Assembly (NCBI GenBank): GCA_958437935.1
Contig: CAUBPS010000008.1
Coordinates: 24,754-88,753 of the forward strand
DNA from: an uncultured Collinsella sp.
GTDB taxonomy: Bacteria > Actinomycetota > Coriobacteriia > Coriobacteriales > Coriobacteriaceae
DNA length: 64,000 nt
Direction: 5' to 3'
The notes beneath the pieces are model-generated. The model did no database searches, was not told the DNA's origin, and was given only the letters and a program-made list of their open reading frames with translations. Numbering within the stretch: position 1 is the stretch's first letter; each line of letters starts with the position of its first letter. Position numbers and translations under genes: made by a program. This document shows, piece by piece, positions 18,458 through 64,000 of the stretch.

Positions 18458-18461
18458 TAAG

Positions 18462-18887: not shown

Positions 18888-18922
18888 TTTTATATTCCTT
18901 CCGCCGTTCCCGTTATGACTAC

Positions 18923-26806: not shown

Positions 26807-27039
26807 GATTCTCCAATCTTGCTCTCTAGCTAATCAAAATTATAACGATTCTTGATTAGCAGGAGAGCAAGATTATGCGTAACTTGATTAATGGATAAGC
26901 AAGTTTTCTATTAGTGGCCCCTCCCGGAGGATATCGAGCGGCCGAGGGGGGGCAGGCATGGACGCCTCTAGCCGAAAACAAAGTAGCTAAAAAAGCCCCA
27001 TTACAGTTTGAGTCGTCCGAAAGGGCGGCTCTTTTCCGT

Positions 27040-31943: not shown

Positions 31944-32393
31944 CCAGAGAAGAATCAACCCCGATTAAAAGAGGCGACATCAAGCCCAGTCTACGTTTGG
32001 CGATCCCAAGACCCAACGAGAACACAGCGACGAAATCGAGGACCAACGATAGCCCGTTCGCACAGATATTGATGGAGATTCAAGACATGGGTGCTGGCTT
32101 AAACGGCTTGGCTATCGTACGCCACAACGTTCTCGTCATCGTCCCTGTCGTTTTTATAGTGCTTATAGTGAAAATAGCGAGTTTAGTGAGAACAGTATTG
32201 CGCAAAACTCGTGAACTCAATTATTGACCTCTCGCCCAGAACGAGGGGAGGCAAATACTCCTATTAGAGATCAAATCGAAGCCCAATAGGGCCTTTTAGC
32301 CCCGTCATTTCGAACGATCGCTTTCTTTTGAATATTGTCGTAAGCTGGTATCATTTATCTTAATGAATGCATACTGTTTGCGAGGTGCCCGCC

Positions 32394-33041
32394 GTGAAAC
32401 GATCCACCTATATCGGCCTGCTCGTCTTAGCGTTTGCAATTACCGCAGTCGGCGTAGGCATTATCTATCTCGCATTTCTCCCTGCCTCGGCAACGCAGGC
32501 GGCGGTTGAAACCGTAAGCTACCCCATCGAAATCCTCACCGATATCGTCAAACCCGATTCAATCACCGTCGATTTTGACGGTACGCCCGCAGCGCTTGGG
32601 GTCAGTAACTATCCCCGAATCGAACTTGGGGCCACGCGCTATACCCAAGATGAGCAGCTTATCGGCAAGGCAACCAATTTACTCAAAGGCAAGACGTTTA
32701 ATCGATGGTACGGCGCCGCAATATATCGAGCCAAGAAAGGCCAAATGGTTGGCGGGTATTATTCGACCCTTGAACTCGATGCGGCAAACGGGAGTAGACT
32801 GTGCAGCGTTTCATACGACCCCGGCTACGTGGACAACGAAGGGCCGGGAGTCTATATCTCGGATGGCAACGTGATCTACGTCATGGCGGGCGATCAGACG
32901 GCAGTCGTCAATTTTATGGATCGGTGTACCGAGGATGCCTACGAACAAACCTGCGAGCCCGATCCGCAGACAGCGCGCGACAGCAGCTCAGCACGCACTT
33001 GGCTATTTGACGATGAAATAACCTGGACCCCATCGAAATAA
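32394..33041 (+). CDS. Hypothetical membrane-anchored or secreted protein
   Basis: GTG start after GAGGTG; basic N-terminus plus hydrophobic helix; lies between two repeat arrays. Confidence 0.65.
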   Translation: MKRSTYIGLLVLAFAITAVGVGIIYLAFLPASATQAAVETVSYPIEILTDIVKPDSITVDFDGTPAALGVSNYPRIELGATRYTQDEQLIGKATNLLKGKTFNRWYGAAIYRAKKGQMVGGYYSTLELDAANGSRLCSVSYDPGYVDNEGPGVYISDGNVIYVMAGDQTAVVNFMDRCTEDAYEQTCEPDPQTARDSSSARTWLFDDEITWTPSK

Positions 33042-36552: not shown

Positions 36553-37518
36553 TTAATACGTCGCCTTGTAACGGTTGACCTTCTCGCGATAGTCGCGTGT
36601 GTCGGCCTCGCGCAACTTGGTCATGGCCTCGCGCTCGTCGTCGGACAGGTTCGTGGGAACCTGCACCTTAATCTCGACGAGCAGCGCACCGGTGCGACCG
36701 CGATGCTTGACGTCGGGCGCACCCATTTCCTTAAAGCGGAACTTCTTGCCCGCCTGGGTACCCGCGGGCACCTTCAGACGAACCGTCGCGCCGCCGGGCG
36801 TGGGTACGTCAACCGTGCAGCCGAGCGCCGCCTCGTAGACCGAGACCGGCACCTCCATGGTCACGTCGGCACCTTTACGCTTAAACAGCGGGTGCTCCTC
36901 CACATGCGTGGTCACGACCAGGTCGCCGCGCTCGCCTCCGGCAACGCCGTACTCGCCGCGGCGTTTGTAACGCAATTTGCCGCCGTCGACCGCACCCGCA
37001 GGCACCGAGACCGTGATGGTCTGCTGCTCGCCCGTCGAGGGAATGCGGTAGGTGACCTTGTGCGTCACGCCGCGGAACGCGTCCTCGGCCGTTACGTCGA
37101 CAGTCAGCGACAGGTCGCCGCCCTTGCGCGCGCGGTTGCGGCCCGCGCCCGCACCGGCAGCGCCCGCAGCCCCGGCAAAGCCCGAGCCCCAATCGCTGCC
37201 CCAGGCGCCGTTGCCACTAAAGATGCTGTCGAAGATATCGCCCCAGCCGCTCGCGCCGGCACCGGCGCCGTAGCCGCCGCTATACGCGCCGCCCGCACCC
37301 GGCATGCCGCCGAACATGAGCATCTGGTCGTACTCTTTGCGCTTCTTCTCGTCCGAAAGCGTCTCGTAGGCCTCGCTAATCTCCTTAAACTTGGCCTCGT
37401 CGCCGCCGGCATCGGGGTGATATTTTTGCGCGAGCTTGCGAAACGCGCTCTTGATCTCTTTGTCGGAGGCGCTCTTGGATACGCCCAGGATGTCATAGAA
37501 GGTTTTGCCTGCAGCCAT
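36553..37518 (-). CDS. dnaJ: DnaJ/CbpA-type co-chaperone lacking the zinc finger
   Basis: J-domain with KYHPD, G/F-rich linker, C-terminal domain, no CxxCxGxG. Confidence 0.9.
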
Positions 37519-38471: not shown

Positions 38472-40364
<1,893 letters not shown>

Positions 40365-48600: not shown

Positions 48601-51600
48601 CGCCCTCGACGAGCTCGCCCTTGGTGACCTTCCAGCCCAGAGCAGGATCATCGTTGCCGTAGGCCTTGGAGGCATCCAAAGCCGATACCGTAATCGCGAG
48701 CGGAGTAACCTCGAGCGTCACTTGACCCTCGACCGTCGTGCCGTCAATTGTGACGCGATAGTCGACCGTCATATTGCTGGCGTCCTTGATGCTGGGAGCA
48801 ACGTTCGTCCATCTGCCACCGGCAGCCTTGTACTCGACGACGGCGCCCGCGGGCAGGGCCGAGATATCGACAAAGTGCTCCTTGCCATCGTACTTGCCGG
48901 AGTAACCCTTAACAGCAAGAGCGGGGATCTCAACCGCACCCGACTCGTGACCACACACGGAGCACGTCCCATGCTTGGAACCGACCTCAGTAACCGTCGG
49001 TTGCTTGTCGATCGTCCAGTTGAACGTATGCTCGGCGTACATCCGAATCTTGCGGGTTTGCAGGTTGTTGGCAGAATCCGTAGCCACGATTGCATGCTCA
49101 GTGCCAGCATCGCCTTCATCAGCCTTAACTGTGTACCGGCCGTTCTTATCAGCCTGGAGCTCCTTGCCGTTATCAGTGACCGTCACCGTCTCGTCACGGT
49201 CATCGAACACGTCGAACGAAACGCTATCGCAATAGGCATCGTCTTCGTAAAGGTCATAAATGGTGGGCGCTTCGGTGTCAACGTAGGTATAGGACTCTGT
49301 GTAATACCACTTTATGCCGCAAACCCTGCACACCTTTTGACGGACACCGTCGAAGTCGGGCGTTGCCGGCATAATGATCTCGTGCTTCCACCTGCAGCTC
49401 TGACGGTCTAGAATCTGATCGCAGTTCTGGCAAACCTTAACGTGTACCCCTGGATCGTTCTGTTTCCAAACAGCATTGGTTGCATCGGAATGGGGCCCCT
49501 TCTCGATTTTGACCTCGGTATCGGCCGACGCATTGTGGTTGTAGTCAGCGGCATAGCGGACGTAGTACGTTCCCGACTTCGCAAGACCAGTCAGCTTGCC
49601 GTCAGACGCAATCTCCTGGTATTCCCTGCTCAACTCGTAGCGGTATTCCATTTTCTCGGTAACGCCCGAGATAGAACCGTCATTACTGTTGCACGTGGTC
49701 CAGTTATTGCCCACGAGCTCAGCCGGCGCCTTCTGGTCGGCCTTGAAAATCTTCACAGTCGCGCTGTCCGTAACTGTCAGGTAGCCAGAAGCCGTCACGC
49801 GGTAGTAGATCGTGCGCTCGCCCGCGCTGCGATACGTCGGCTTTTCCGTCGTCCAATCTCCGCCGTCTTCACGGTACTCGATCTTCATACCCGCCGGAAC
49901 GGGGTCATTCTTAACGTTGACCGTAATGCCATGCTTTTCGCCGTCATAGGCACCGTCGAAGTCAATGACCTCAAGGTCGAAACGCGCAACGTCAACGATC
50001 TTCCACGAGAGCTTAAAGCTCTTGGCATAGTTGCCCTTGCCATTAACGTAGCACTCATACTCGCCCGGCTCGGTCTTGACCAAGTCTCCGGTCAGCTCAA
50101 AGTCCGTTCCCTCTACGAGCTTAATCTCCTCGCCGGCACCGTTAGTGAACGTTGCGCTCGCAATGATCGGCCTATGCTCTTTCTCATCGTAGGTGTATTT
50201 ACCGTCATCCTTGAGGGTGAACTTGAAACCACCCTTATTGTTCTTATATAGGTTACGCGGCACGATTTCGAAAGCCCTCTTGCCCTCGAACGTTTTGCCA
50301 TAGCTGGGAGAACCACTGGATGTCTTGTACGACACCACCAAGTAGTAATGGCCCGCATCCTTGGGCGCGCTCTTGAGCACGGTGCCGCCCTCACACGCCT
50401 CAGCCTTTTCCTCCGTCTCGCACTTATACCACGTCACGTCAGCAGCTGTGACACCCATCATTGCAAGGTTATCCTGCTCGTACTTATCCATCGACAACTG
50501 AATTGGCTCGTCATCGTAAACGTATCCGGTCTGACCATTATTGTTCGAAGACTTAGCTGACATAGCGAGCGTATACGAGGCGGTAAGCTTCTTCCTATAG
50601 GGGCACTCGTCGCTATTGACCTGCCCCACACATTCGGCCTCAATGTTGAGCCCATTCGCCGATTTAATCTGCCACACGCACTGGTGGACGGGCTTGCGGA
50701 AGGTGAGATCGCCGTTGATGTTCACAATCTCATAGTCATCGGTGTAAGCGCCATAGTCCTTCGGACCATCTGCCTTAATCCCCTTAATCGCGTTGCCCGA
50801 GTCACACTTGCCGAGGAAGCGCGACGAAAAAGGATCGTTGCCTTCAACCTCAGCAACGGTCACCAAGACACCCACATTAGAGTAGGCGCTGAATCCGCTC
50901 GCAAGATTAAGCGCAGGAACGGAATCGTCCGCATTCTTTTTCTTGGGAATGTAAATGCTCTTTGCTGTGCCGGTCGCAATATCGGCATTGGTATACCCGT
51001 CGCCCTCTTCCTTATCGCCAGCAGCAGCGTTCTTGTGATAACTCGCAATCTCCGGCTTGCCGTCCAGTGTCAAAGAACCCGCAACATAGGCCATGCATGT
51101 ATTGCCGCGCGCACCGTAGCGTTCAATCGTGCCGCCGTTTATGTTGCAGCGCGCGCTTCGTGCGACATTGAGAGCATCAACCGTCAAGGTGCTGTCTGCC
51201 GAGCTCGAACGCGCACTATGGAAATCCTTCATCGTGCAGTTATTGAGATTAAGCGTAGCGTTGGTGACGCCCATCACTCCAGCAACAGCATACGTATTCA
51301 GATAATTGGTATTAGTGAGACAAGGGGTTTCTTCGACTGACGCATAGCTCTTGCTTGCCTGCTTGACGCCCCGTCTATCGCCGCCCGCGGTACCAAAATT
51401 GCAGCCGCTGAACGTCGCTGTCAGCTTTGAGACAGCACTTCCATCCGTAGGCATCCTATAGCTGCTATTGCCATCGATGGAAACGGCACCGTTGAGGTCA
51501 CCGGACACGTCACGGAACTCACAGTTGTTAAAAGTCGCTTTGAAGGAATGGGTGTTGCCGCCATCCGAATTATTCCAGCCCTCACGGAAGAGATGTACGG

Positions 51601-52294
51601 GGACGGCATACTCTTCGCGATTGCCCGCCACTGCACCCGATTTGCCAACATAGCCTTGGATCTTCAGTTCTTCGAACTTGGCGGTCAGCTCGCCCTCGGT
51701 GCCGCCCAAGGAAATCGCGGGCACCTTTTGTTCTTTCGCGCTGCTGTACGAGAGGAAGAAGTTCTCCGAGTCGTCGCCAACCCCCAGGCTAACCGAGATA
51801 TCCCCCGATGCATTCTTGTAGACCCCGTCGTAATAACGGTCGGTCAAAAACCCGCTTACGGACTGACGCACTCCACTCTTATCATGGAAGCTGACGCACG
51901 GATTGTTGATACCGACGAACTCGATATTGCTGCCCTGTTTAATGTTGAACAGCCATCGCTCTTGACCGAGCGACGAGTTCGTATAATCGTTCACGTAGAC
52001 CGTGCCATCGATGTAAATCGTCACGGGGTGATACGAAGTCGCGTTCGGGACGTCGATGACGTAGCCCGCAGACGGCGTGGTCTGATTTTCGCTCGTCCTG
52101 AGGACATAGCAACCAGGCTCAGTGATTGTAACCGGCTCTTTGCCGCCCTGCCCAAGCGACAGAACCTCTGTATTAGCAGGCACCCGCGTCTCGGCGCTGG
52201 CCACCGCCGGCGTTGCCACGAGCGTGCATGCCATGGCGACGATGCCCAGCAGGCGCGTCAGCACGGCGCGCGTCCCCATCTTCTTCTCCCTCAT
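45692..52294 (-). CDS. Large cell-wall-anchored repeat protein (MBG-like and Cys/His modules)
   Basis: Signal peptide ending AVASA; ASK(A/T)YG..DP..NPNYEITF modules; LPSVG + TM + RRR sorting signal. Confidence 0.85.
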   Translation of the reverse strand: MREKKMGTRAVLTRLLGIVAMACTLVATPAVASAETRVPANTEVLSLGQGGKEPVTITEPGCYVLRTSENQTTPSAGYVIDVPNATSYHPVTIYIDGTVYVNDYTNSSLGQERWLFNIKQGSNIEFVGINNPCVSFHDKSGVRQSVSGFLTDRYYDGVYKNASGDISVSLGVGDDSENFFLSYSSAKEQKVPAISLGGTEGELTAKFEELKIQGYVGKSGAVAGNREEYAVPVHLFREGWNNSDGGNTHSFKATFNNCEFRDVSGDLNGAVSIDGNSSYRMPTDGSAVSKLTATFSGCNFGTAGGDRRGVKQASKSYASVEETPCLTNTNYLNTYAVAGVMGVTNATLNLNNCTMKDFHSARSSSADSTLTVDALNVARSARCNINGGTIERYGARGNTCMAYVAGSLTLDGKPEIASYHKNAAAGDKEEGDGYTNADIATGTAKSIYIPKKKNADDSVPALNLASGFSAYSNVGVLVTVAEVEGNDPFSSRFLGKCDSGNAIKGIKADGPKDYGAYTDDYEIVNINGDLTFRKPVHQCVWQIKSANGLNIEAECVGQVNSDECPYRKKLTASYTLAMSAKSSNNNGQTGYVYDDEPIQLSMDKYEQDNLAMMGVTAADVTWYKCETEEKAEACEGGTVLKSAPKDAGHYYLVVSYKTSSGSPSYGKTFEGKRAFEIVPRNLYKNNKGGFKFTLKDDGKYTYDEKEHRPIIASATFTNGAGEEIKLVEGTDFELTGDLVKTEPGEYECYVNGKGNYAKSFKLSWKIVDVARFDLEVIDFDGAYDGEKHGITVNVKNDPVPAGMKIEYREDGGDWTTEKPTYRSAGERTIYYRVTASGYLTVTDSATVKIFKADQKAPAELVGNNWTTCNSNDGSISGVTEKMEYRYELSREYQEIASDGKLTGLAKSGTYYVRYAADYNHNASADTEVKIEKGPHSDATNAVWKQNDPGVHVKVCQNCDQILDRQSCRWKHEIIMPATPDFDGVRQKVCRVCGIKWYYTESYTYVDTEAPTIYDLYEDDAYCDSVSFDVFDDRDETVTVTDNGKELQADKNGRYTVKADEGDAGTEHAIVATDSANNLQTRKIRMYAEHTFNWTIDKQPTVTEVGSKHGTCSVCGHESGAVEIPALAVKGYSGKYDGKEHFVDISALPAGAVVEYKAAGGRWTNVAPSIKDASNMTVDYRVTIDGTTVEGQVTLEVTPLAITVSALDASKAYGNDDPALGWKVTKGELVEGESLQDITVSREGGETVRKGGYAVTASQADGANPNYEITFKPGTFTIDKRELTVKWDATTEFTYDGEEHCPQADLGNVVGDDKLGAYVDGGAVKAGKHTATITELTGVDKGNYKLPATGLTCEFSIKKAPKGAPVVQGVAETVSAKADGKITAVDATMEWRAKDSGEYQAVPEGVAELSGLAAGTYEVRYRADDNHEASTATKVTVAAGRKLAVTLPAEQVGYKLTADATELDWHGFATLTISIEDGYFADPSAYVVKVNEDAVALNDRGEFAVQDVEGDVKVTVEGVRKHEAVKDAWLSDGNTHWHECTCGGKADEAAHTFTWVVDTPPTATEKGFGHKQCVVCGYELPGEEIPAAAISGYSDEYDGAYHTVNASALPEGATAEYSTDDGKTWSTAAPEIKDAGTLDVAYRVMIGGATVEGQVTLEVKPRAITVTAQNASKTYGEKDPVFEWSVTAGELVKDETLELEIEREDSDDVRDGGYKLQLTQPEGANPNYEITFVDGMFTINQRLLTVTWGTTEFVYDGKEHCPVATLGNVIGKDDLGAFVDGSQTEVGTYTATLAELTGKAAGNYVLPAEGLTCEFSIKNAAQDAPVVQATAETVSGKKDGKITGIDATMEWRAQGAAGYQAVGKDVTELKDLAAGVYEVRYQAKANYDESPATELTVKAGRKLVVTLPSNQVGYTLTSTATELDWHGSAKLAISIDSAYFTGKDYAVNVNGKAVKLSDDGTYELKDVEGDVNVTVDGVLKHEPDGSGWAHDAKAHWHICRCGEILDKAEHAFEWVVDKPATTEAKGERHQECTVCGEKGKTEDIAILAPTIIEGAGQAITVDTAKDLSFRSNAPIKYFKTVLVDDMEVGADNFVLTSGSTIVTLKTSFVKTLGVGEHKLSVVSTTGTAETTFTIAEAAKPTPTPGPSQTTTTTTTTSSKSKKKTGKGTLPSVGDGMYAMAGGVLAAGVAVLLLAYAMRRRA

Positions 52295-52537
52295 CGTGCA
52301 GCTCCCCTTATCCCTATTCTTCGCGATGCACGGCATCGCTTGGCACTGGCGGCTGGCATAATCCCCGGCCAGCCACCAGCATCTGTTGACATGTTTATCC
52401 ACGAATTATTTTGCGGCGGCACTTTCTAACACCCTGCCGCTCGGCGCGAGTTGCACACCGTGGGGCGCAAATGGGATGCGCCTCCGCAAGCGGTACGCGC
52501 CCGATATGGCAAAATCGAACTACAAAGGGGGCTCAGA

Positions 52538-53260
52538 ATGCTCAAGATTATTGCCTGCGACGACGACGTCGCTTTTCTAGATAGACTGCACCGGATGATC
52601 GACCGTTGGTCGAGCGAGACGGGCACGGCGGTCGACCTTGCGCTCGTCACGCGCGGCGAGGACCTGCTGGCCCGCCACGCCGCATCGCGCGCCGACATCA
52701 TCCTGCTCGATATGATCATGCCGCTCGTCAACGGCATGGACACCGCACGCGAGCTGCGCCAGTCCGATACCGCCGTGCGCCTGGTGTTCCTCACCTCGTC
52801 GCCCGAGTTTGCGCTGGAGTCCTACGAGGTCCGTGCCTTCGACTACCTGCTCAAGCCCGTGGCATACGAGCGCCTGGCGCAGCTGCTCGACGAGCTTTCG
52901 AGCATGCGCCCATCGGCGACCGACGAGCTCGTCATCAAAACGTCCTTTGGCTACCATGCCCTGCGCCTGTCCGACATCGAATATGCCGAGGCGCGCAACA
53001 AGCACGTGGTCTTCCACCTGCGCGACGGACGCGATATCGAGGCGCTCGAGTCGTTTCGCAGCGTCGAGGACCGCTTGGCGCAAAACGCGGTCTTCTTTAA
53101 ATGCCATCGCAGCTACCAGGTCAACCTGCGCAACATCGATCATTTCGATCGGACGGAGATCGTCATGCGCTCGAGCGCGAGCATTCCGCTTTCGCGCAGC
53201 AGCAAGCAGGGTTTCCAAGATGCCTACTTTGCGGTGCGCTTTGAGGGCGGGAGGCGCTGA
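52538..53260 (+). CDS. LytTR-family response regulator
   Basis: CDDD, LLDMIM, FDYLLKP receiver domain; FFKCHRSY LytTR domain. Confidence 0.92.
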   Translation: MLKIIACDDDVAFLDRLHRMIDRWSSETGTAVDLALVTRGEDLLARHAASRADIILLDMIMPLVNGMDTARELRQSDTAVRLVFLTSSPEFALESYEVRAFDYLLKPVAYERLAQLLDELSSMRPSATDELVIKTSFGYHALRLSDIEYAEARNKHVVFHLRDGRDIEALESFRSVEDRLAQNAVFFKCHRSYQVNLRNIDHFDRTEIVMRSSASIPLSRSSKQGFQDAYFAVRFEGGRR

Positions 53261-54537
53261 TGCCTGCATCGGTCGAAATGGTTCTTTGGGCGATTCACCA
53301 CGCCACGACGCTGCTCTTTGGCGTTTTTGCCTCGGCGGCGCTCTGCGGCGTCGAAATCAATCGACGCCATGCGCTCGAATTGTTGGGGATCGGTGCCGCA
53401 ACCGGCGCCGCCTTCTCGATCGCCAACGCCGTTGGCGGAGAACTGTTCGCCCGTCAGGCGTATCCGCTCGTCGTGCACCTGCCGCTTATCGTCTTCCTAT
53501 GCGCGCGCTACCGCTTAAGTCCGCTGCTCGCGGCATTGGGCGTCACCAGCGCCTACCTGAGCTGCCAGTTTAGCAACTGGATGGGTATCGCCGCATTCGC
53601 AGTCACCGACTCGCAGGTTGCATACTACCTTGCGCGCATTGCGACCACGCTCGGCGTCTTTGCCGTCCTCCTACACTGGGCCGGCGATATCGGCCCGCGC
53701 CTGGCGATTAAAAGCCCCACCGAGCTGGGCATTCTTTTAATTCTGCCGCTCGTCTACTACATCTTTGACTACGCTACCAACGTCTACACCACGCTGTTCC
53801 ACTCGGGCTCGGTGGTGACCGTTGAGTTTTTGGCCTTTGCCCTTTGCGCCTTCTACCTTATGTTTCTCGCCGTCTATCTGCGCGAATACGAGGCAAAGGA
53901 AGTCGCCGAGCGTGAGCGATGGATGCTCGAGACGCGCGACAGCGCGGCCATCAAAGAGCTCGAGGCCTGGCGCCAGTCCGGACGCGAGCTGTCGATTCTT
54001 CGCCACGACATGCGGCACTTTTTGCGCGGTTTGGCCGTTTTAATTGAGGAGGGCCACACCGACGAGGCGCTCGATCGCATCGATGAGCTCTGCGAGACCA
54101 ACGACCGCACCGCCGTGCGCCGCTACTGCGCCAACGAGACCGTCAACATCGTGCTTTCGTCATTTAGCTCGGATATCAACAAGCACGGCATCGCCGCCGA
54201 CCTGCGCGCCGCCGTGCCCGAAACCGTTCGCGTGAGCGATGCCGACCTGTTCAGCGTGCTTTCGAATGCCCTGGAAAATGCCATCATCGCCGCAAGCGCC
54301 GCCCCCGAAGGCAAGCGCTTTGTCGACCTTGACCTGCGGCTTGAAGACGGCCAGTTGTTGCTTTTGGTTTCCAACACGTTTGGACGCGCGCCGCGTATGG
54401 TCGACGGCATGCCCGTGACCCAACACGCCGGCCATGGCTTTGGCACCAAGAGCATCAAGCTTGCCGTAGAGCGCATGAACGGCAACTGCCAGTTCCGCAT
54501 CAACGGTGACCGATTTGAGCTGCGCGCTGTGATGTAG
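53260..54537 (+). CDS. GHKL membrane sensor histidine kinase (AgrC-like)
   Basis: About six TM helices, RHDMRH, NALENAI, GHGFGTKSI. Confidence 0.9.
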   Translation: MPASVEMVLWAIHHATTLLFGVFASAALCGVEINRRHALELLGIGAATGAAFSIANAVGGELFARQAYPLVVHLPLIVFLCARYRLSPLLAALGVTSAYLSCQFSNWMGIAAFAVTDSQVAYYLARIATTLGVFAVLLHWAGDIGPRLAIKSPTELGILLILPLVYYIFDYATNVYTTLFHSGSVVTVEFLAFALCAFYLMFLAVYLREYEAKEVAERERWMLETRDSAAIKELEAWRQSGRELSILRHDMRHFLRGLAVLIEEGHTDEALDRIDELCETNDRTAVRRYCANETVNIVLSSFSSDINKHGIAADLRAAVPETVRVSDADLFSVLSNALENAIIAASAAPEGKRFVDLDLRLEDGQLLLLVSNTFGRAPRMVDGMPVTQHAGHGFGTKSIKLAVERMNGNCQFRINGDRFELRAVM

Positions 54538-55633: not shown

Positions 55634-55744
55634 TACGCTTGTTACGTATCTGCCGTCCATGAGCGGTTTTGCACCGCTCGCCGGAGCGCCGGGTGCAGGG
55701 CGCGCGACCACGGATAGTATGGTAGACACAAACAGCCCCCAGTG

Positions 55745-55783
55745 AACGGGTGCGGGTCAGACGGACTCGCACCCGTTTTCTTC
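55745..55783 (+). terminator. Terminator at the trxA / island boundary
   Basis: AACGGGTGCGGGTC/GACTCGCACCCGTT stem plus T-run. Confidence 0.7.
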
Positions 55784-55811: not shown

Positions 55812-56843
55812 TTATGGATTTAAAAACTCAGATCCGATAGCACGTTCGTAAGACTGGATCGTTTCGGCATTTGCCCTCTCGATATCATTAAGCGGTGATG
55901 TCATCGCATCAAATTCCTCAGGCGAGTATATGCCTTCATACCAATCTTTATTGTCGAAATACTCTTGAATCTTCTCATTCTTGAACTTGCGACCATGGCG
56001 TGCATATATTTCGTTTCTTGCCAAGCAAAGCTCCCATGTGCTCATGCCCATTTCTCTGATCTCCGCCTCGGTATAACGCCGCGAGTCGCTTTCAGAAAGT
56101 AAGTATCCGTCTACTGTCGAACTCTTCGCATCACAGTAATAGGAAAAGCTATCCATAACCTTATGTGATTGACCATCAATATATGAAACGACAACCGTAC
56201 GGCTATCGCCCGAATCACTACCGAGTGTTGATCGATATGCGAGCTTGCAAACCCCGTCCGAGCCGACTGCGACGCTCCGAGGGCTGATCGAAGCCTGGCC
56301 ACCGCTCACCCCTGTTTCTTTAACGACCCAATTCTCTGGCTTTGATAGCATCCCTTTTGAAGATCCCGTTACCTTAACATTCACCATCATCTCGGGAAAC
56401 GCGCCTGAATTATTAGATATCACCGTCAATTCTGTTGCGCCTTCACCATCATCTGCATCTTCTTCATATGAATTTTCCGGCTCGGCTTCATCGGCATCCG
56501 TTTCATATATCGTGCTTTGATGGCTTTGAGCTGATTCCGATGAAAGATGACTGCTCCCGGATCGGCTCCAGACGAAATAGCCGCCAACGACGATGACGGC
56601 CACCAGACCAATTATCACTATTTTATTTGAATCGAATCCGCCAATTAACCCAATTGCCCTTTTACCGAGCTCGTTGCCGGAATCCTCTGCCCCTGCTCTC
56701 CCCTTCGCATTTTCTTGGACATCGAATGACATCCGCTCATTCTCTGCGGTCGGCCGACCTGCATCAGAAGATACTTTCGCAGCACAAAAGGGACAGTAAA
56801 CCGTCCCTTCTTCTATCTCTGCGTTACATTTGGGACACTTCAC
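55812..56843 (-). CDS. Zinc-ribbon + TM + YARHG domain protein
   Basis: CPKC..CPFC, one TM, LARNEIYARHGRKF; GTG start after GAAAGGGGAG. Confidence 0.85.
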   Translation of the reverse strand: MKCPKCNAEIEEGTVYCPFCAAKVSSDAGRPTAENERMSFDVQENAKGRAGAEDSGNELGKRAIGLIGGFDSNKIVIIGLVAVIVVGGYFVWSRSGSSHLSSESAQSHQSTIYETDADEAEPENSYEEDADDGEGATELTVISNNSGAFPEMMVNVKVTGSSKGMLSKPENWVVKETGVSGGQASISPRSVAVGSDGVCKLAYRSTLGSDSGDSRTVVVSYIDGQSHKVMDSFSYYCDAKSSTVDGYLLSESDSRRYTEAEIREMGMSTWELCLARNEIYARHGRKFKNEKIQEYFDNKDWYEGIYSPEEFDAMTSPLNDIERANAETIQSYERAIGSEFLNP

Positions 56844-56867
56844 TGTCTCCCCTTTCAATCTGCCTTT

Positions 56868-57701
56868 TTATCCATCAACATGACGTCGATATTCTTGATA
56901 GTTCGACAGATATGATGAGAATTCCGCCGATGTATCCGAATTTCCCGTCCGCCACGCCTTGTGGTCGATAATCTGACTCTTGAACCCGTAATATTCATCG
57001 ATATACGCGATTAGACCGTCGACAGCAATAAGCTGCTCTTCGGGATAATCACCCGACCCTCCAACATGGACCATCTCAATCCCAACGGAATATGAGTTCA
57101 TGCCGTAATCGGGGCAACTTCCCCCTATCGGTAACGTTCCGACCTTGTCATCTCTCGACTCATCGATTGTTCCATACTGCTCGTTCTTCCCAATATCGCC
57201 AAAACCGGCATGGTGCGCGATTTGATCGAGAGGCACACATTGAACGATCGACCCATCTTTTCCAACAACAAAATGAGCCGCTACCTTATTGCCGTTGGAC
57301 TCCCACCAATCGATGACACTTTCAGGGGAAGAATCGCCCTCCGTATCGTGCAAAACGATGTACTTCTGATACTCGGGACCCTTAGGCCCATGCGCCAAGT
57401 CGGCGTAGTACCGTTCTTGAATGCTTAGCTGAAATTCCGAGCTCCCATCGATGGACAAAGAGCGAGATTCGCCTTGCTCTACAACCCCTGAAACCGTGTC
57501 AGTAACTCTCGCATTGCAGATATCAAGCACATCTCCAACACCATCTGCACAAGCCACCAGCACGCAATTGCCTCCGCTGGATTTCACGACCTTTCTCACG
57601 CCAATACGACCGGCCAGAACAATTCCCAAGCCGAACAAGAAAACGGCAAGCGCGGAGGCGAGCCCCCGCGCCACCCATAAACGCCTAGAGCGAGCTTGCA
57701 T
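56868..57701 (-). CDS. Membrane-anchored N-acetylmuramoyl-L-alanine amidase (Amidase_2/AmpD-like); start uncertain
   Basis: IVLHDTEG, AHFVVGKDG, AHHAG, NSYSVGIEM, IIDHK; N-terminal hydrophobic helix. Confidence 0.8.
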   Translation of the reverse strand: MQARSRRLWVARGLASALAVFLFGLGIVLAGRIGVRKVVKSSGGNCVLVACADGVGDVLDICNARVTDTVSGVVEQGESRSLSIDGSSEFQLSIQERYYADLAHGPKGPEYQKYIVLHDTEGDSSPESVIDWWESNGNKVAAHFVVGKDGSIVQCVPLDQIAHHAGFGDIGKNEQYGTIDESRDDKVGTLPIGGSCPDYGMNSYSVGIEMVHVGGSGDYPEEQLIAVDGLIAYIDEYYGFKSQIIDHKAWRTGNSDTSAEFSSYLSNYQEYRRHVDG

Positions 57702-57948
57702 ACGTACTGACCACGTCGCATGCCGTACTGATAAGGCCACCCGCCTCGAGCAGCTTTGCCGCTGCCGCCCCAAGCTGCCCAACCGCCTCATTTTGAGCGG
57801 TCGAATTTGTTCCTTCCATTGCCGCGTTAAGCATGTCATGCAGCGAATCGAGATCGTCCGCCACCGTGGCGCACACGCCTCGCTGCGTCTCCATCTTCGA
57901 CACCAACGCGTTCAGCTCTGCAACGAGCTGGCCGATGTTCTGACTCAT
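57685..57948 (-). CDS. Small helical-hairpin protein, WXG100/ESAT-6-like
   Basis: 87 aa, two heptad helices around a central M-E-G turn; strong GGAAAGGA RBS. Confidence 0.6.
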   Translation of the reverse strand: MSQNIGQLVAELNALVSKMETQRGVCATVADDLDSLHDMLNAAMEGTNSTAQNEAVGQLGAAAAKLLEAGGLISTACDVVSTYASSL

Positions 57949-57966
57949 TTCCGTTCCTTTCCGTTG

Positions 57967-58554
57967 TCACAACAACCCAAATAGCACATTCGCAATAAGC
58001 GAAATTGCCCCAATACAGCACGCGCATAGAACCGCCGCCTGAGAAAGGCAGCCGCCTTTCGACTCCTCGGCCTTAACGGGAAGAGGATCCGGCATCGCCT
58101 TCTCTTCTTCCGCCAGAAGACGCTTCCGGTCAAGAGCCGCCCGTCGAGCATCCAGTGCATTTGAAGATCGCTGACTCAACTCGTTCACAGACGTATCTTT
58201 TTCAATCATCTCGATATAACAATCGATTTTCTTGATAAGCCCTGATAACGAAGATGCAAGCTCGGCAGCGTCTTCATTCGACGCAATCGGTCTTACCATG
58301 TTCGGAAGCGCAGCGCCGACGTCCTTCGCGCGACTCCCCGCAAGTCGTTTAGACAATTGCGAAAAAGCCTCCTGTGCTTGATGCGCCAGGCGATCTATCT
58401 CCGCTTTCTTTTTGCCCGCCATGCTCCTCGCAGAGGTCGACTCCCGATCACAACGATCGCACTCCTGCTTAACAAGCTGGGCGCTCGACGCCTCCGATTT
58501 CAGAAATCGTTCTGCTTCGGACAGATACCTTTCGTACAAATCATCCCTGCTCAT
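57967..58554 (-). CDS. Coiled-coil protein with C-terminal TM anchor
   Basis: Charged helical body, hydrophobic C-terminus; AGGAGG RBS; overlaps the FtsK gene stop. Confidence 0.7.
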   Translation of the reverse strand: MSRDDLYERYLSEAERFLKSEASSAQLVKQECDRCDRESTSARSMAGKKKAEIDRLAHQAQEAFSQLSKRLAGSRAKDVGAALPNMVRPIASNEDAAELASSLSGLIKKIDCYIEMIEKDTSVNELSQRSSNALDARRAALDRKRLLAEEEKAMPDPLPVKAEESKGGCLSQAAVLCACCIGAISLIANVLFGLL

Positions 58555-61246
58555 CGTCGCCCCTCCTCCATAATCGCGTTGTGATAAAGGGCATGAGCTT
58601 CATTGAGGGACGCCCCGAGGAAGCCTCCTTGTAAAGGACCCGGTTCTCTTGCCCGTTCCACTGGCACAGCGGGCCATCCAACTGCTTCGCTGCGACGTTC
58701 GAGCCAAACAGACACGCCACGCCGTCAAAAGACGACAGTCCCGATGAACCCAGCTGCGCTGAAAGCGCTACGGGGGTTTGCCAATGGCAGACAAAGTGGA
58801 TTCCGTGCATAGGAGCCTCGCGGAACACCTTTTGAATCTTCTGCTGAGCACCAAAGTCGAAAGATCCTAGTGAGTCCGCATTCGGCACCAACACAAACCG
58901 CTCCCGCCTACATTCTTCCCCGACATCATTTCTCTGAAGACAATCGGCAATCCATGCAACCGCTTCGTCCGAAGGCACGACCTTCGGAGAAACCCCTGCA
59001 CGAGCGCATATCTCCAGAGTCGAATCAGAAATATGGCGCGCGCCATCCTCCACTACAGCAAACTCAGCGCCTCGCTCATAGCGTGCAAGCGATAAAACAA
59101 GCGTTTCCATAACGCACGCCGCAAGATCGACAGAATTCGGAAGATCACCGAGCCCTGGCAGCGTTCCCCTGCCCACAAGAGCGATATTGCTTCCCGCAGC
59201 TCTTTCAAACGAGAAATATATCGGTGCCAACCCAGCAGAAACACCCCGGCCAAGCAAGGCGCTCGGCACGTTACCTGAATCTATGTCGCTCTGCTCAAGG
59301 AGGGCCTCAGTCAACTCCGGTAGAGTGCTTCCGTCGAAAACCACCGGCTCATCAAGGTGCTCTTTTGACATTGCATAGAACTTGTTCCTGAGACTGTCCA
59401 ACGTGGCATCCTCAGCAAACGGTGTAAGCACCGTCACATTTGCGCTCGGATTTCCGTAATCTTCGTTCAGAATCGCCTGCCCCCTGAACCTTAGACTAGC
59501 GGCCGCCTCGTTAAAGGGTCCGAAAGTCGCCCGCGACTCCGCCGGCGAGTTTTTCAATCCGATACGGATAGGAAACTGTGCGAAGAACTTGCCCTGGGAA
59601 ATGGCAAGATTGGCTATCCCGCCGATACTTTGTGACGCCAGTATCACGTGAATACCATATGCACGATAGAGGCGAACGATGCGTTCCAAAAGTTCACAGG
59701 CTTCCTTGCCTCTCGAGCCTTCTAGAAATAGCTGGAACTCATCAATGACCACAACGATACGCGGCATCTTATTCCCGCTATTGCGCCGATACTTGAGCAG
59801 ATTATCTCCGTAAGGCTTGATCGCAGCGGCCCTCCGCTTGGCCTCTGCGGCTATGGAATTCAGCACATCCATGGCAAAGTCTTCATCGGCCTCAAGCCCA
59901 AATGCCTTTACCTGCGGTAGATACTCGGGAGAATCCAGCGTGGGAGCCATGGGAAACAGGGTAACGCCCTCTTTGAAATCAAACAGATAGAGTTCCAACT
60001 CGTCGGGAGAATACCTGGCGCACAAACCGTAGATGATATCTTTCAACAGATTCGATTTACCCTGTCCTACCGCACCGGTAATCAGTGCATTATGTCTTTG
60101 AGTCTCATTCGAGCCAATCGTGACATCAACCATCTGGGTTCCACGCAGACCCAGCGAGAACGTGACTCCGTCCTCGCTCGTCTCCATCCAATACTCCGCG
60201 GGAAGCACCGACTCAATCTTTACTTCGGGCAACCGCAGCTCTGCCGCTGATCGAGCCATCCGCTCGGCGGCTTGCGTCGATTCAATCGTGTCAAGCTCAT
60301 AGAGCTCAACATCGTAGCCATCGTGACCCAGCCATCGGGCATGACTGCCCGAGAATAGTTCGAGACGCTCCGAAACAGGATAGGAATGTTTCTTCTCGCA
60401 ATACCATTTGGGCAAGTCGTCCATCTTAGGCTGTATCATTAAGAAAGAAATGCCTGCCTTTGGAGCCGCCTTCATCAGCGAGCATACACGGTCGTATTGC
60501 TCGGCAGCCATTCCCATCGGCATATCGTGGATCACAACGAGCTGGTACTTCTCGACCGGCATCCCGACCCGTTGGTGATATACCGCCAGGCACTCATCGT
60601 CTGTCAGCAACTCGTTGTTGATTCGCGTCACACGGTCGGTCAGCTCGTTAAGTAAGGCATCGAGTTCTCCTCTCGAATGCAAATACCTGACCGCCGCCTC
60701 GCCTTGCCCGTTCCGGCCAATCGTCGAAAAAGGAGCCTCGATGTTTTTGAGTGCCGGGTCAAAACTAATGATTTCAACTTGCGATGCTGAGGTCGATAAA
60801 AGCGTCTTGGCCTCTACCTCGCGCACCACCCCGTCTGAAATGCAGCCCTCGCCTGAAACCGACATCACGATATTGCCGTGACCAAGCAACGGGACGATAA
60901 AGGGCACCGTAAACAAATCGTCACATTTTGAAGTTTTCGACATCGATCCAATCTGGATATACTCGGCCGCATTGAGGGCCGAGCCTTCCTCGTTCGCCAG
61001 TAACTCGTCAACGGTATCCTGCACGCGCTTTTTCGAAAGGGCGTTGCGGCGCTTCTCCCTGCTGCTGAGTTTATTGAGCGCTCGTGTTTTTGCCTCCTGT
61101 CTCTCCTTCAGCGTCATCTTCAACCACGTGTCAACGGAGGCAGATTGGGATTCACAAGCTCCCAGCAGATGAGCCTGGCATTCCTTGACCTCGCTGAGCG
61201 CTTGCCTCATTTCGGCATAGGTCTCTTCCAGCGACATATTGGCCAT
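58541..61246 (-). CDS. FtsK/SpoIIIE-family ATPase, EccC/EssC-like
   Basis: ALITGAVGQGKS, YSPDELELYLFDFKEG, IVVVIDEFQ, YGIHVILASQ, RIGL. Confidence 0.88.
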   Translation of the reverse strand: MANMSLEETYAEMRQALSEVKECQAHLLGACESQSASVDTWLKMTLKERQEAKTRALNKLSSREKRRNALSKKRVQDTVDELLANEEGSALNAAEYIQIGSMSKTSKCDDLFTVPFIVPLLGHGNIVMSVSGEGCISDGVVREVEAKTLLSTSASQVEIISFDPALKNIEAPFSTIGRNGQGEAAVRYLHSRGELDALLNELTDRVTRINNELLTDDECLAVYHQRVGMPVEKYQLVVIHDMPMGMAAEQYDRVCSLMKAAPKAGISFLMIQPKMDDLPKWYCEKKHSYPVSERLELFSGSHARWLGHDGYDVELYELDTIESTQAAERMARSAAELRLPEVKIESVLPAEYWMETSEDGVTFSLGLRGTQMVDVTIGSNETQRHNALITGAVGQGKSNLLKDIIYGLCARYSPDELELYLFDFKEGVTLFPMAPTLDSPEYLPQVKAFGLEADEDFAMDVLNSIAAEAKRRAAAIKPYGDNLLKYRRNSGNKMPRIVVVIDEFQLFLEGSRGKEACELLERIVRLYRAYGIHVILASQSIGGIANLAISQGKFFAQFPIRIGLKNSPAESRATFGPFNEAAASLRFRGQAILNEDYGNPSANVTVLTPFAEDATLDSLRNKFYAMSKEHLDEPVVFDGSTLPELTEALLEQSDIDSGNVPSALLGRGVSAGLAPIYFSFERAAGSNIALVGRGTLPGLGDLPNSVDLAACVMETLVLSLARYERGAEFAVVEDGARHISDSTLEICARAGVSPKVVPSDEAVAWIADCLQRNDVGEECRRERFVLVPNADSLGSFDFGAQQKIQKVFREAPMHGIHFVCHWQTPVALSAQLGSSGLSSFDGVACLFGSNVAAKQLDGPLCQWNGQENRVLYKEASSGRPSMKLMPFITTRLWRRGDDEQG

Positions 61247-61692
61247 CAGCCCTCTTCATACCGAAAGGCAACTACTCGCGCCGGGCGAAGAAGCCTTACC
61301 CCAAGCCTATATCCGTCCCGTTCCACCCGAACAATCTCCCCGTCTTTTGAAGCGTCGCGCGTCTTAATCAATCCGACGATTTCATGCTCCCGCAAGTTGA
61401 CCTTCCCTGCACACGAAACCTGCTCAAGCCCGTAATGACCGCACGTCTCGATGACTTCATCCACAATCGAGGTTCGCAAATCCTCCGATAGAGGTTCGGA
61501 CCTAAATCTGTCAATTGCCAACAACAACTCGGTGAACAACGTTGCAAAAGCTTCGCCAGTAGCCAGGTCTTTGATTTTGTTTGAGTCTGATTTGAGAGAC
61601 GCGAGGGACGTCTTGAGCTGTGCGGCGCAGTCAATAATTGCCCGGCGATCGCTGTCCAAGCCGTCCAGTGCCTGGTCCCACCGTACATCCAT
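61246..61692 (-). CDS. Divergent GrpE-like protein
   Basis: ELLLAIDRF, HEIVG, GEIVRVERDGYRLGVRLLRPARVV; ATG 61692 coupled (TAATG) to the upstream stop; alternative start 61713. Confidence 0.8.
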   Translation of the reverse strand: MDVRWDQALDGLDSDRRAIIDCAAQLKTSLASLKSDSNKIKDLATGEAFATLFTELLLAIDRFRSEPLSEDLRTSIVDEVIETCGHYGLEQVSCAGKVNLREHEIVGLIKTRDASKDGEIVRVERDGYRLGVRLLRPARVVAFRYEEG

Positions 61693-62804
61693 TATTGAAG
61701 CCCTGTTTTCCAAGCGGCATCTCCTAGATTTCGCTTGTTAATCCGCCATCCTTCGGGAAACACTTCAAACATGACCACAACAACAACGATCGCTACGTAA
61801 ATCAAGACATACACAGCATCAACAGCGGCGAGTATAAAGAACAGCACAGTGAAGCCGATTATCGCTTTGCCAATACCTTCCTGATCTACAAAGTGCCTCT
61901 TGCGTGCCCACTCGGTCATTCCGCGCATTTGCACAACCCATTTTGCTGTTTCGCTATTTACTTTCCCCATCGAATCTAGTTCCGCTATTACTTTTTCTAC
62001 ATATTCAACCTGCTTCAAACTGGCGAAGCAAACTTTGCTCCCTTGCGAACTCATCTTGTCTTCCGCATCATGTCGGAGGCAACGGCACAACGAATTTCTA
62101 ACGATTTCAGAATCCGGATGGGCCTCGTAAAGGTTGCGGCACATTTGCAGGGCCACGTCATACTGACCTCTGTAGTACCTCACATCGGCGAGCAGCGCCA
62201 AAATCAAGTAATCCGACGGGTCAATCTTTTGAGCAACAAGAAGCTGAGATTCAGCTTTCTCATATTCATCGGTCATGTAGTAGGCAAATGCCAGTAGCTT
62301 TCGAGCATACACGTCGTCCGAATCCAACTTAAGCAGCTCGGATGTTGAGAAAATGACATCGTCATATTTATCAAGCAATTGGGAAGCACGCGCGCGCCAC
62401 AACCAAGCCGACCCATCAGACGCGTCAGCTCGAACAGCTTCGCAAGCTGAATGGAACGCATTTGTATATTGGCCCGCCTCATAATACGCTTTTGCGTCTG
62501 CGACCCAGTCTCTTCCCGAGGTTCTCGACATTGGGCTCTCGCCATGGGGCTCTCGCCCGACTTCCCTCTTGTTTGCGTCATACGACGCATCGTACTTACC
62601 ACGACGCACCTCATCGTGGAACAGTTCATCCGCTTCGTTCAAGCGCTGCATCATTTTCTCAGCGTTCGTTCTTTGCTCCGCATCGGGCGAGCCCTCGAGG
62701 CGCCTGAAGCGCTTTCTGGTTTTCTTGATCGCCTCTTCGATATCCTCAATCGAGGCGTCCTTTTGCAGTTCAAGGATTCCGTAGTAGTCGACAAATTCTT
62801 CCAT
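61692..62804 (-). CDS. J-like domain + TPR repeats + C-terminal TM protein
   Basis: DYYGILEL..DAS..DI....K and RLNEA.ELF.DE.RR.KYD; TPR-like helices; two hydrophobic segments. Confidence 0.8.
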   Translation of the reverse strand: MEEFVDYYGILELQKDASIEDIEEAIKKTRKRFRRLEGSPDAEQRTNAEKMMQRLNEADELFHDEVRRGKYDASYDANKREVGREPHGESPMSRTSGRDWVADAKAYYEAGQYTNAFHSACEAVRADASDGSAWLWRARASQLLDKYDDVIFSTSELLKLDSDDVYARKLLAFAYYMTDEYEKAESQLLVAQKIDPSDYLILALLADVRYYRGQYDVALQMCRNLYEAHPDSEIVRNSLCRCLRHDAEDKMSSQGSKVCFASLKQVEYVEKVIAELDSMGKVNSETAKWVVQMRGMTEWARKRHFVDQEGIGKAIIGFTVLFFILAAVDAVYVLIYVAIVVVVVMFEVFPEGWRINKRNLGDAAWKTGLQ

Positions 62805-62812
62805 CTGATTTC

Positions 62813-64000
62813 CTATCCGATCTCGATGTTCTTCATCTTGTTAACGGCAGCATCAAGTTGCCGCTCGTCCATATTCGCCACGCGGTCGATTTCGAACTCA
62901 CCGTACAGTCGTCCGTTCTCCCCGTCATATAGACGGATATGCACTGTCTGTTCTTTGTCGTATTCATAGACGATGCGGATGGGAGAACTCTTGGGCAGGC
63001 CAGCGGGAAGCGGTATCTCTTTAGATCCGATGATTACCACATAGTTCAAATCAGGGTCATCGCCCTGCGTCACCTGGACGTTGACGCATGATTGGTTTTC
63101 ACAGACCGTCGCTGCATCTTGTGAGTAACTTCCCGGCACGGGCGAATTCCTCGGAATCACGACCTCGTTGTATTCCTTGCCATCCTTATCGAGTATCACA
63201 ACCCCCAAAGGCTGCGATGTCACATCGGTGATGACAACGCTCGGGACCTCGAAGATGGGCATGTCGGGCAAACCATCCTTCGGTAAACCCGCCTCATCAA
63301 GACTAGACTCCATCTCTATCGCTGCCTGAACGGCGGCTCCCATGGCAACAGCCTCATCAGGATTTACCCCGAGTTCAGGCTTCATTCCCGATATTTCTTC
63401 AATCAGTTTGTGCACCATCGGCATACGCGTCGAACCGCCCACAAGAACCACATGGTCGATCTGCGACCATGAATAGCCAGTGTCTTCGAGCACATCCTCA
63501 ACCAGTTCTTTTGTTCGAGTTAGAAGCGACTTGCTTACGCGTTCGAAATCTTCGCGCGTAATAGTTACGCGATAGGGCTTTCCGTCTTTCGAAATGTGAA
63601 GGTTGGCTTTTGCCACGTTCGAGAGAGTGCGCTTCACCATTTCGCACTTCTCGCGAAGCTCAGCGCTTATCAGATAATCCTCAAGAACATTACCCGCCCC
63701 CTGCTTCGAAAGCTCTTCCGCTGCAAACGACATGAGGGCGTTATCGAAATCGAATCCGCCCAAGTTTCTATCGCCATCGGTTCCGATAACCGTAAAGCAA
63801 CCGTCCTCTATCTTAAGAAGCGTCACGTCGAACGTTCCGCCGCCCAGATCATAGACAAGCGTGACGCCGTTCTTCTCGGTATCGAGACCAAAGGAAAGGG
63901 CTGCAGCCGTCGGCTCATTCAACACGCGAAGCACTTTGGTGCCCGCAATTACACCCGCCTGCTTTGTCGCGGTTCTTCTTGCATCATCAAAATATGCGGG
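62813..64000 (-). CDS. Specialised Hsp70 family protein (5' end beyond the window)
   Basis: Frame open to the edge: [52 protein letters not shown]. Confidence 0.9.
   Translation of the reverse strand, partial: PAYFDDARRTATKQAGVIAGTKVLRVLNEPTAAALSFGLDTEKNGVTLVYDLGGGTFDVTLLKIEDGCFTVIGTDGDRNLGGFDFDNALMSFAAEELSKQGAGNVLEDYLISAELREKCEMVKRTLSNVAKANLHISKDGKPYRVTITREDFERVSKSLLTRTKELVEDVLEDTGYSWSQIDHVVLVGGSTRMPMVHKLIEEISGMKPELGVNPDEAVAMGAAVQAAIEMESSLDEAGLPKDGLPDMPIFEVPSVVITDVTSQPLGVVILDKDGKEYNEVVIPRNSPVPGSYSQDAATVCENQSCVNVQVTQGDDPDLNYVVIIGSKEIPLPAGLPKSSPIRIVYEYDKEQTVHIRLYDGENGRLYGEFEIDRVANMDERQLDAAVNKMKNIEIG

Follow-up and report, generated by a model that had tools for sequence, protein, structure and literature searches.

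Why a secretion-type ATPase and a small helical hairpin protein should share an operon with Hsp70, J-like and GrpE genes is the question raised by a locus in an uncultured Collinsella sp. (Actinomycetota; Coriobacteriia). The stretch of DNA analysed, referred to here as the window, comprises 64,000 nucleotides of contig CAUBPS010000008.1 (positions 24,754 to 88,753, forward strand; GenBank assembly GCA_958437935.1, genome completeness 99.6%), and the operon lies at its right end. A preliminary description made from the sequence alone had proposed that eight co-oriented genes (Hsp70, J/TPR/transmembrane (TM), GrpE-like, FtsK-type ATPase, coiled-coil (CC)/TM, 87-aa hairpin, amidase and YARHG) constitute a horizontally acquired, undescribed secretion, antagonism or envelope-defence system. 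We report that the locus belongs to what appears to be an undescribed, chaperone-linked version of a minimal type VII secretion system (T7SS)-like module that is conserved across distant bacteria, and we give roughly even chances to the reading that it encodes a minimal, mobile exporter of type VII-like kind, with a split anchor in the membrane and a chaperone arm of its own.

The proposed co-conservation of the gene set was borne out in distant taxa, in which Hsp70, J-like and GrpE genes recur together with the ATPase and hairpin genes. For this comparison 90 loci were annotated (one of the Collinsella set, 78 of 80 metagenome loci, two from plasmids and nine genome regions), many of them related and some truncated. 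Six genes occur in a conserved order, namely Hsp70, J-like/TPR/TM, GrpE, ATPase, CC/TM and the 87-aa hairpin. The Rhodococcus plasmid NZ_CP070617 carries Hsp70, a TPR protein, GrpE, the ATPase, a 203-aa gene and an 86-aa gene in the order of the window, which is also kept in metagenome locus L047, and in locus L089 the set differs only in that the J/TPR gene has moved downstream. There is also indirect evidence of shared contigs: when the first 69 ATPase homologues of a list of 120 were compared with 92 Hsp70 homologues, 13 records, including those of Nocardioides albertanoniae and Bifidobacterium goeldii, agreed with an Hsp70 record in the length of the longest contig.

The three chaperone genes had been described as a dedicated triad, and this part of the description needs correction because the J-like/TPR/TM gene is the conserved component (48 of the 90 loci) while Hsp70 and GrpE are optional (14 loci each; all three genes in 12). 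In the 37 loci flanked by 6 kb or more on each side, J, Hsp70 and GrpE were found together in 7, J alone in 17 and none of the three in 13; Hsp70 without J was found in 0. In a FastTree phylogeny of the ATPases from 68 of the 90 loci, with 14 near-duplicates and 8 ATPases shorter than 600 aa left out, the J-bearing loci cluster, and Hsp70 and GrpE are present in the deepest branches and in one lower-GC subclade and absent from other branches; the order of their gains and losses is tentative, given deep-node support of 0.57-0.71. Distances between Hsp70 sequences follow those between the ATPases (Mantel r=0.89, n=12 loci) and the well-supported clades agree, a congruence that argues for long co-inheritance. 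The cell-wall enzymes, likewise claimed as parts of the system, turned out to be local add-ons: amidase and YARHG genes accompany the module only in the Collinsella island, and queries with both gave no match near the ATPase outside Collinsella.

The assignment of the ATPase as type VII-like holds at the level of the fold. Its AlphaFold2 model (pLDDT 90.4) consists of a helix (residues 6-83) followed by three RecA-like modules, D1 to D3, in the EccC/EssC arrangement, EccC and EssC structures being the best Foldseek matches, led by 4nh0 (EccC, E 8e-31, 927 columns), with 4n1a, 4lya and 5fv0 also among the top hits; the NCBIfam EccCa model matches at 1e-25, below its cut-off. Active-site motifs are present in D2 (Walker A 391-398, Walker B 499-503), of which G391, G394, G396, K397, S398, D502 and E503 are invariant in a 58-row alignment. 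D1 and D3 are degenerate, with no Walker A lysine motif in either, and the enzyme is, by its sequence, powered by D2 only. The window ATPase has no hydrophobic or TM segment, and one of the 90 locus ATPases reaches a Kyte-Doolittle hydropathy of 1.9, at a core strand. A related 1295-aa ATPase (L136:6954-10841) begins with TPR repeats and may correspond to a J/TPR gene in fused form.

A membrane attachment for this soluble motor may be supplied by the neighbouring CC/TM protein, which a profile built without it still recognises (E 7e-6). The CC/TM gene follows the long-form ATPases, and a clade of ~780-aa ATPases is without both the CC gene and the N-terminal helix. Complexes of three chains (ATPase 1-640, hairpin and CC 1-168) were modelled together with 3 controls; the CC-ATPase pair obtained an ipSAE of 0.83 against 0.00 for the best control, and the runs share at least 72% of contacts with partner pLDDT of at least 73. 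Of solved pairs, 116 of 157 reach the ipSAE mark used, and of mismatched pairs 2 of 215; both figures are only roughly valid here, where our own alignments were used. The predicted interface joins ATPase residues 4-82 and 95-123 (the N-terminal helix and its base) with CC residues 2-120 and is centred on the invariant CC Tyr10, and the CC/TM protein is thus predicted by the model to be a separately encoded membrane anchor that clamps the N-terminal helix of the ATPase. No fused CC-ATPase form was present among the 12 matches of a single-sequence search, which is a weak test. The CC/TM protein was also considered as an LXG-like partner of the hairpin and rejected, as there is no profile similarity, the complex model lists no hairpin contacts and the score is 0.00 with the ATPase replaced. 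In a cluster including L091 (3456-4943), L093 and L095, the protein encoded directly 3' of a related ATPase has a coiled coil and a TM segment and ends in a PemK/MazF-like domain (Pfam 5e-8), an RNase-toxin fold at the anchor position.

The island Hsp70 falls in a clade separate from DnaK, HscA and HscC (support 1.0). The catalytic and allosteric residues of its nucleotide-binding domain are intact; K70, P143, Y145, R151, E171, D194 and T199 are conserved in all 86 homologues, D8 and T11 in 84 and R167 in 74. The alphaB-E lid is absent: 74 of the 86 homologues stop 30 residues past the DnaK-505 column, compared with 134 in DnaK, and the island protein, which has an insertion before the linker, terminates shortly after the beta part of the substrate-binding domain and alphaA. 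The J-like domain is equally unusual in that the HPD motif is found in none of 57 aligned sequences; the window protein has SPD, and HPN, HPK, RPE and others occur elsewhere. This J-like/TPR/TM protein is kept in loci without Hsp70 and GrpE.

The 87-aa protein is modelled as a helix-turn-helix hairpin (pLDDT 96) with the size and turn position of WXG100 proteins. The WxG position lacks Trp (M-E-G), and the Pfam match to WXG100 is below cut-off. The window hairpin is homologous to those of related loci (E 5e-4, with a seed that excluded it), and hairpin genes, all of this motif-less type, stand directly behind the ATPase, one in the window and 1-5 in relatives. In T7SSb, export factors described as 'WXG100-like' but devoid of the motif are known (PMC10765036).

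Candidate cargo was identified in the related loci. Three of the four loci that share the window layout have a last hairpin extended by a C-terminal domain, which is an ADP-ribosyltransferase in L047 (Pfam 5.7e-10), a C39-like peptidase in L089 (5.5e-4) and a domain without family match in L043. In loci with short ATPases, 14 of 15 further open reading frames (ORFs) share a helical N-terminus of up to ~95 aa joined to several unrelated C-termini; a different ORF follows each, and one matches EndoU weakly (E 1e-3). A shared helical N-terminus with varied C-termini and a different next ORF forms a polymorphic toxin/immunity pattern, and such hairpin-fused pairs in related loci are the reason for which export is favoured. 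Several lower-GC loci with Hsp70 carry four hairpins and no toxin-like cargo. Many short-ATPase loci (the L051-L101 group, L078, L081 and L084) adjoin genes for a histidine-kinase-like ATPase and a LuxR-type response regulator, and in these loci two J/TPR/TM paralogues often flank the cargo genes.

All eight genes of the Collinsella operon are intact minus-strand ORFs in the place and order first described (Table 1), and inspection of the junctions agreed with the tight spacing that had been noted (overlaps or gaps under 25 nt). Hsp70 and J are separated by 8 nt, TAATG at 61694-61690 joins the J stop to the GrpE start, TGATG lies at the GrpE/ATPase junction, the ATPase and CC genes overlap by 14 nt, and gaps of 18 nt and 9-24 nt separate CC from the hairpin and the amidase from YARHG, respectively. 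The amidase has a probable GTG start at 57674 in a frame open from 57839. Sequence beyond the window confirmed the Hsp70 and located its start 372 nt past the window end, so that the gene is not fully within the window; beyond it lie a divergent XRE helix-turn-helix (HTH) gene and an AAA_14/DUF4143 gene (together at window-equivalent 64493-66297), both inside the island. As described, the operon is low in GC, with 51.8% where the genome has 60.2% and 5 of 509 8-kb segments are as low, and the housekeeping dnaK, with dnaJ near 36655-37512, is separate and about 22 kb away. Promoter and terminator counts equalled those in shuffled sequence.

Table 1. Features of the island and its surroundings in window coordinates.
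Feature	Position (strand)	Evidence or remark
Hsp70, lidless, 519 aa	62813..64000 (-); start beyond window, at window-equivalent 64372	Pfam HSP70 6.5e-90
J-like domain, TPR array and C-terminal hydrophobic segment, 370 aa	61692..62804 (-)	Pfam DnaJ 1.7e-7 and TPRs
Short GrpE, 148 aa from ATG coupled to J stop	61246..61692 (-)	Pfam GrpE 2.8e-8
EccC/EssC-like ATPase, 901 aa	58541..61246 (-)	Pfam FtsK_SpoIIIE 5.7e-16
Coiled-coil protein with C-terminal TM, 195 aa	57967..58554 (-)	Matches no Pfam family
Helical hairpin, 87 aa	57685..57948 (-)	Pfam WXG100 only E=0.013 (16.2 bits, cut-off 27.3)
Amidase_2 peptidoglycan amidase with N-terminal hydrophobic segment	56868..57674 (-)	Pfam Amidase_2 3e-21
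Zn-ribbon/TM/YARHG protein	55812..56858 (-)	Pfam YARHG 1.5e-22
Hairpin terminator after trxA and left island boundary	55744..55782 (.)	Host similarity ends at 55782
Housekeeping dnaK, outside the system	38580..40364 (-)	58% to E. coli DnaK, 38% to island Hsp70

The proposal of horizontal acquisition is supported by an empty site: in Collinsella genome G050, about 22 bp replace the 10.5 kb at 55783-66333 that constitute the island (the eight genes, the HTH gene and the AAA_14/DUF4143 gene). In a sample of 201 Collinsella genomes, 187 match the flank; among the matches listed, the source genome and 4 others extend into the island and the remaining ones end at window positions 55778-55782 (59 weaker matches lie beyond those listed). 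Most Collinsella genomes are thus without the island at the same site. Searched by rank, the ATPase matched 5 of 301 genomes in the class, 9 of 351 in the order and at least 7 of 401 in the phylum. Of the 35 loci in the closest named records, 34 belong to Collinsella, and the gene order between trxA and nikR/hypF is constant in all 35 wherever the contig reaches. The remaining record, labelled Treponemataceae (L002), is 99% identical and holds both island and Collinsella flanks at 95-100% identity, and its label is probably a binning error.

Judging from substitution patterns, the eight genes are under purifying selection, with ratios of nonsynonymous to synonymous rates (dN/dS) of 0.05-0.52 and 0-2 broken copies per gene among 27 complete Collinsella copies. 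These copies are mosaics in which most of the ATPase, CC, hairpin and amidase genes is 94-100% identical in DNA, and the TPR/TM region (55-68%), GrpE (71-78%) and parts of Hsp70 (~80%) are divergent. The divergence of J/TPR shows dN/dS of 0.22 at high dS, and the proportion of synonymous differences (pS) of up to 0.63 makes the mosaic look like an exchange of old alleles and not positive selection. One Collinsella copy has an insertion of ~2.5 kb inside its YARHG gene (L012:14957-17508), and in L193 (11254-12531) an AAA gene before the ATPase looks similar by eye to the AAA_14/DUF4143 gene of the island. Elsewhere in the window, a repeat-rich surface protein of 2236 aa (45692-52402, minus strand), sortase-like at its C-terminus and lower in GC over its N-terminal third, adjoins a response regulator/histidine kinase pair (52451-54537), all labelled by eye, and further short patches of low GC (50-52%) lie at 18001-19000, 26001-27000 and 32001-33000.

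If the module is an export machine, the CC/TM anchor would take the place of the TM region fused to EccC and EssC, and the ATPase would oligomerise at the membrane and engage hairpin bundles, that is, free hairpins and, in many relatives, toxins that are fused to a hairpin and followed by an immunity gene, as in Lap/LXG systems. The TPR array may retain cargo, or part of the machine, at the membrane, where the non-canonical J domain would recruit the cognate Hsp70 only and not the housekeeping DnaK. Fast binding and release by a lidless Hsp70 could keep cargo export-competent or recycle complexes, and GrpE would reset the Hsp70. In the Collinsella copy the 87-aa hairpin would be the only evident substrate, and the membrane-anchored amidase and YARHG protein may open or bind the wall locally. 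We infer both export itself and the contact between chaperone arm and motor; the anchor step follows from the structural model.

Several findings weigh against this reading. The hairpin cannot be shown to be a WXG100 protein: 4 of 49 family members match WXG100 at E<=0.05, hhalign to a true WXG100 protein gives 1.1%, and the fold matches are generic, CFP-10 (TM-score 0.75, E 0.54) being no better than generic hairpins. No hairpin-fused cargo was found in the source genome, in which the 87-aa gene is the only strong match of the hairpin profile and one 729-aa ORF is a weak match. In L089 the CC and J/TPR proteins are both without a TM segment, and one or two TM helices per anchor are a thin basis for a channel. 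As Hsp70 and GrpE are missing from many J-bearing loci, they are not essential to the core process. For the TM-less ATPase class, the available text of Bell 2024 (PMC11090510) deems a different mechanism likely because TMs are lacking.

The main rival is an intracellular defence or envelope-stress system without export, in which the variable TPR array would sense a phage or stress ligand, Hsp70 would remodel the ATPase-hairpin complex, and a toxic domain or the CC/TM protein would be freed or activated inside the cell, leading to abortive infection or dormancy. We regard it as possible, on the improbable side. It is the main rival because sister modules reside in TerY-P/CoCoNuT defence operons (available text of Bell 2024, PMC11090510; Caballeronia plasmid L192), the TPR/TM region is the variable part of the island beside near-constant ATPase, CC and hairpin genes, the source genome is without cargo and L089 is without TMs in CC and J/TPR. 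To these may be added the TerY-P-like triad of VWA, PP2C and kinase genes that immediately follows the ATPase, J/TPR and hairpin genes in L080 (7626-10505, 34% GC), the TerD genes of L044, the PemK/MazF-like end of the CC-position protein in L091 and the patchiness of the island, which reaches 4 of 200 congeners among the matches listed. The variability of the TPR region, however, looks like that of exchanged old alleles, the small ORFs after the toxin-like ORFs vary as in polymorphic toxin/immunity pairs, and PADLOC yields only generic FtsK-domain matches. Viral contigs and phages likewise gave no full-length homologue, the best match being 33% over residues 349-637, with one unannotated 10-kb record.

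Two further explanations concern single parts of the locus. Hsp70, J and GrpE might be a co-travelling quality-control cassette that folds or assembles long helical proteins, or mere neighbours, in either case outside the transport cycle; the loss of Hsp70 and GrpE from several subclades, the separate recombination of the chaperone block and the ATPase in Collinsella and the J domain without HPD would all fit. We consider this unlikely in view of the translational coupling of J, GrpE and ATPase, the congruence of Hsp70 and ATPase trees over deep distances, the specialised, lidless Hsp70 (74 of 86 homologues) and the retention of J/TPR/TM even without Hsp70. A role of the ATPase in moving the island, as DNA translocase or coupling protein, with the amidase as a conjugation wall hydrolase, is highly improbable: membership of the FtsK family, the presence of TcpA and FtsK further down the Foldseek list and one plasmid-borne copy have to be set against the EccC-like arrangement of three modules accompanied by hairpin genes, an island in which no ORF was recognised as a relaxase, VirB4 or integrase, the constant chromosomal position of every Collinsella locus that includes flanks and a Rhodococcus plasmid typed as non-mobilizable.

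The export reading can be extended to a hitherto unrecognised type VII-like subtype across Actinomycetota and low-GC gut lineages, in which a soluble motor is docked by a separate anchor, a lidless Hsp70 recruited by the membrane J-like/TPR protein through a non-HPD contact acts as one ATP-driven component in the cycle of translocation, and a new family of hairpin-led polymorphic toxins is delivered. This wider claim is doubtful; if it were true, the Hsp70 part would be to bacterial export what the Hsp70 motors of organelles are to import. The TM-less 'minimal T7SS' class has been in print, in passing, since 2012, and the papers found leave open how export would proceed without a membrane domain, to which a separately encoded anchor, as predicted by the model, would be a concrete answer. 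Export, if true, would add a new secretion subtype and toxin-carrier family to gut and oral Actinomycetota. The system is compact (~6.5 kb) and could be expressed whole, the lidless Hsp70 subfamily with its HPD-less J partner is a natural case in which to ask if an Hsp70 system requires lid and HPD, and the island Hsp70 also tests how a specialised Hsp70 stays insulated from DnaK.

With regard to known systems, the claim of an undescribed system applies to the additions and not to the core. A search of literature that largely excluded subscription papers found neither the J-like/TPR/TM component nor the arm of lidless Hsp70 and GrpE, the CC/TM anchor or the cassettes of hairpin-led toxins described; earlier mention may exist in Anantharaman 2012 or in the supplements of Bell 2024 and Garrett 2024, and PMC5720513 has no bearing on the locus. 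The combination of ATPase and WXG protein is a described class (Zhang 2012; Bell 2024). The minimal module of Zhang 2012 (PMC3482391, table footnote) has the same ATPase logic and minimal gene set as the island, and Hsp70, DnaJ and GrpE are unmentioned in the available text (300,000 of 357,715 characters). In the accessible part of Bell 2024 (PMC11090510), a TM-less ATPase with coiled coil, D1, D2 and D3, of which D2 alone is active, is described with two WXG100 proteins, and Anantharaman 2012 is cited for a stand-alone mobile form.

This module of Type III-A CoCoNuT/TerY-P systems resembles the island, as far as that text goes, in its three ATPase modules with only D2 active, an N-terminal coiled coil in place of FHA/TM, partner hairpins of which one is without WxG, and its mobile, sometimes stand-alone, occurrence. 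The Caballeronia plasmid L192 (NZ_CP049321), with VWA, WXG100, coiled-coil protein, ATPase, CARF, VWA, PP2C, kinase and AAA protein genes, has the extended Type III-A layout of Bell 2024, in the part available; its ATPase is 27% identical to that of the window (E 3e-41; profile E 1.6e-98). In contrast to the island, the CoCoNuT/TerY-P module has no J/TPR/TM, GrpE or CC/TM anchor, the words 'GrpE' and 'DnaJ' being unmentioned in the accessible text of PMC11090510, and its Hsp70-like CnuD domains are described there as fused or degenerate and predicted to bind RNA, whereas the island Hsp70 is free-standing with intact catalytic residues. Conversely, the island has no McrBC-like CnuB/C, CnuH helicase or VWA-PP2C-kinase triad, and its hairpin is without Trp.

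The statement that characterised ESX/Ess loci do not include an Hsp70 triad agrees with Garrett 2024 (PMC11217815), in the available text of which Hsp70, DnaK, GrpE and DnaJ are unmentioned for the ten subtypes T7SSa-T7SSj; the island module is not among these ten. These subtypes share with the island an EccC/EssC-fold ATPase and a helical hairpin, and include hairpin-led toxins with Lap-like partners; their ATPases are described in that text as membrane-bound, unlike the TM-less ATPase of the island. In canonical T7SSa and T7SSb the ATPase is attached by TM helices at its own N-terminus, with FHA domains in T7SSb. T7SSd, which occurs in related Coriobacteriia (Olsenella), has an FHA-bearing TsdC, the Ser/Thr kinase TsdD, TsdH and TsdI (same source, part available), whereas the eight island proteins have no FHA or kinase Pfam match. 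The reported absence of EccB, EccD and EssB extends to the source genome, in which PF05108, PF19053, PF10140 and PF08817 (EccB, EccD, EssB and YukD) gave no match with positive controls, MycP, EssA and EsaA not being searched for; PF06013 (WXG100) gave no match either. Given the TM-less ATPase and the lack of EccB, EccD, EssB and YukD, the system is not a canonical T7SSa, b or d. A T7SS-dedicated wall hydrolase has a precedent in the available part of PMC13059805. In the H. pylori HP0062/HP0066 region, a table row of Uchiyama 2016 (PMC4978471, available in part) reads 'DnaK homolog, WxG100 family' in a 'WXG100 secretion system' cluster; this is a one-line label with no J or GrpE, and a loose precedent for placing a DnaK-like gene next to a minimal T7SS.

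Among defence systems, the PADLOC check of the locus gave no system-specific match. A parallel to the chaperone arm is found in E. coli, where HscC is a reduced-length extra Hsp70 paired with the non-HPD membrane-type J proteins DjlB and DjlC. Orthology to HscC/DjlC was rejected, as the island Hsp70 is 31% identical to HscC against 38% to DnaK and forms a separate clade, and the island J protein does not detect DjlB/C. Unlike the island, the hscC region has no FtsK or hairpin genes; what the two have in common is a shortened extra Hsp70 with a non-HPD membrane J partner.

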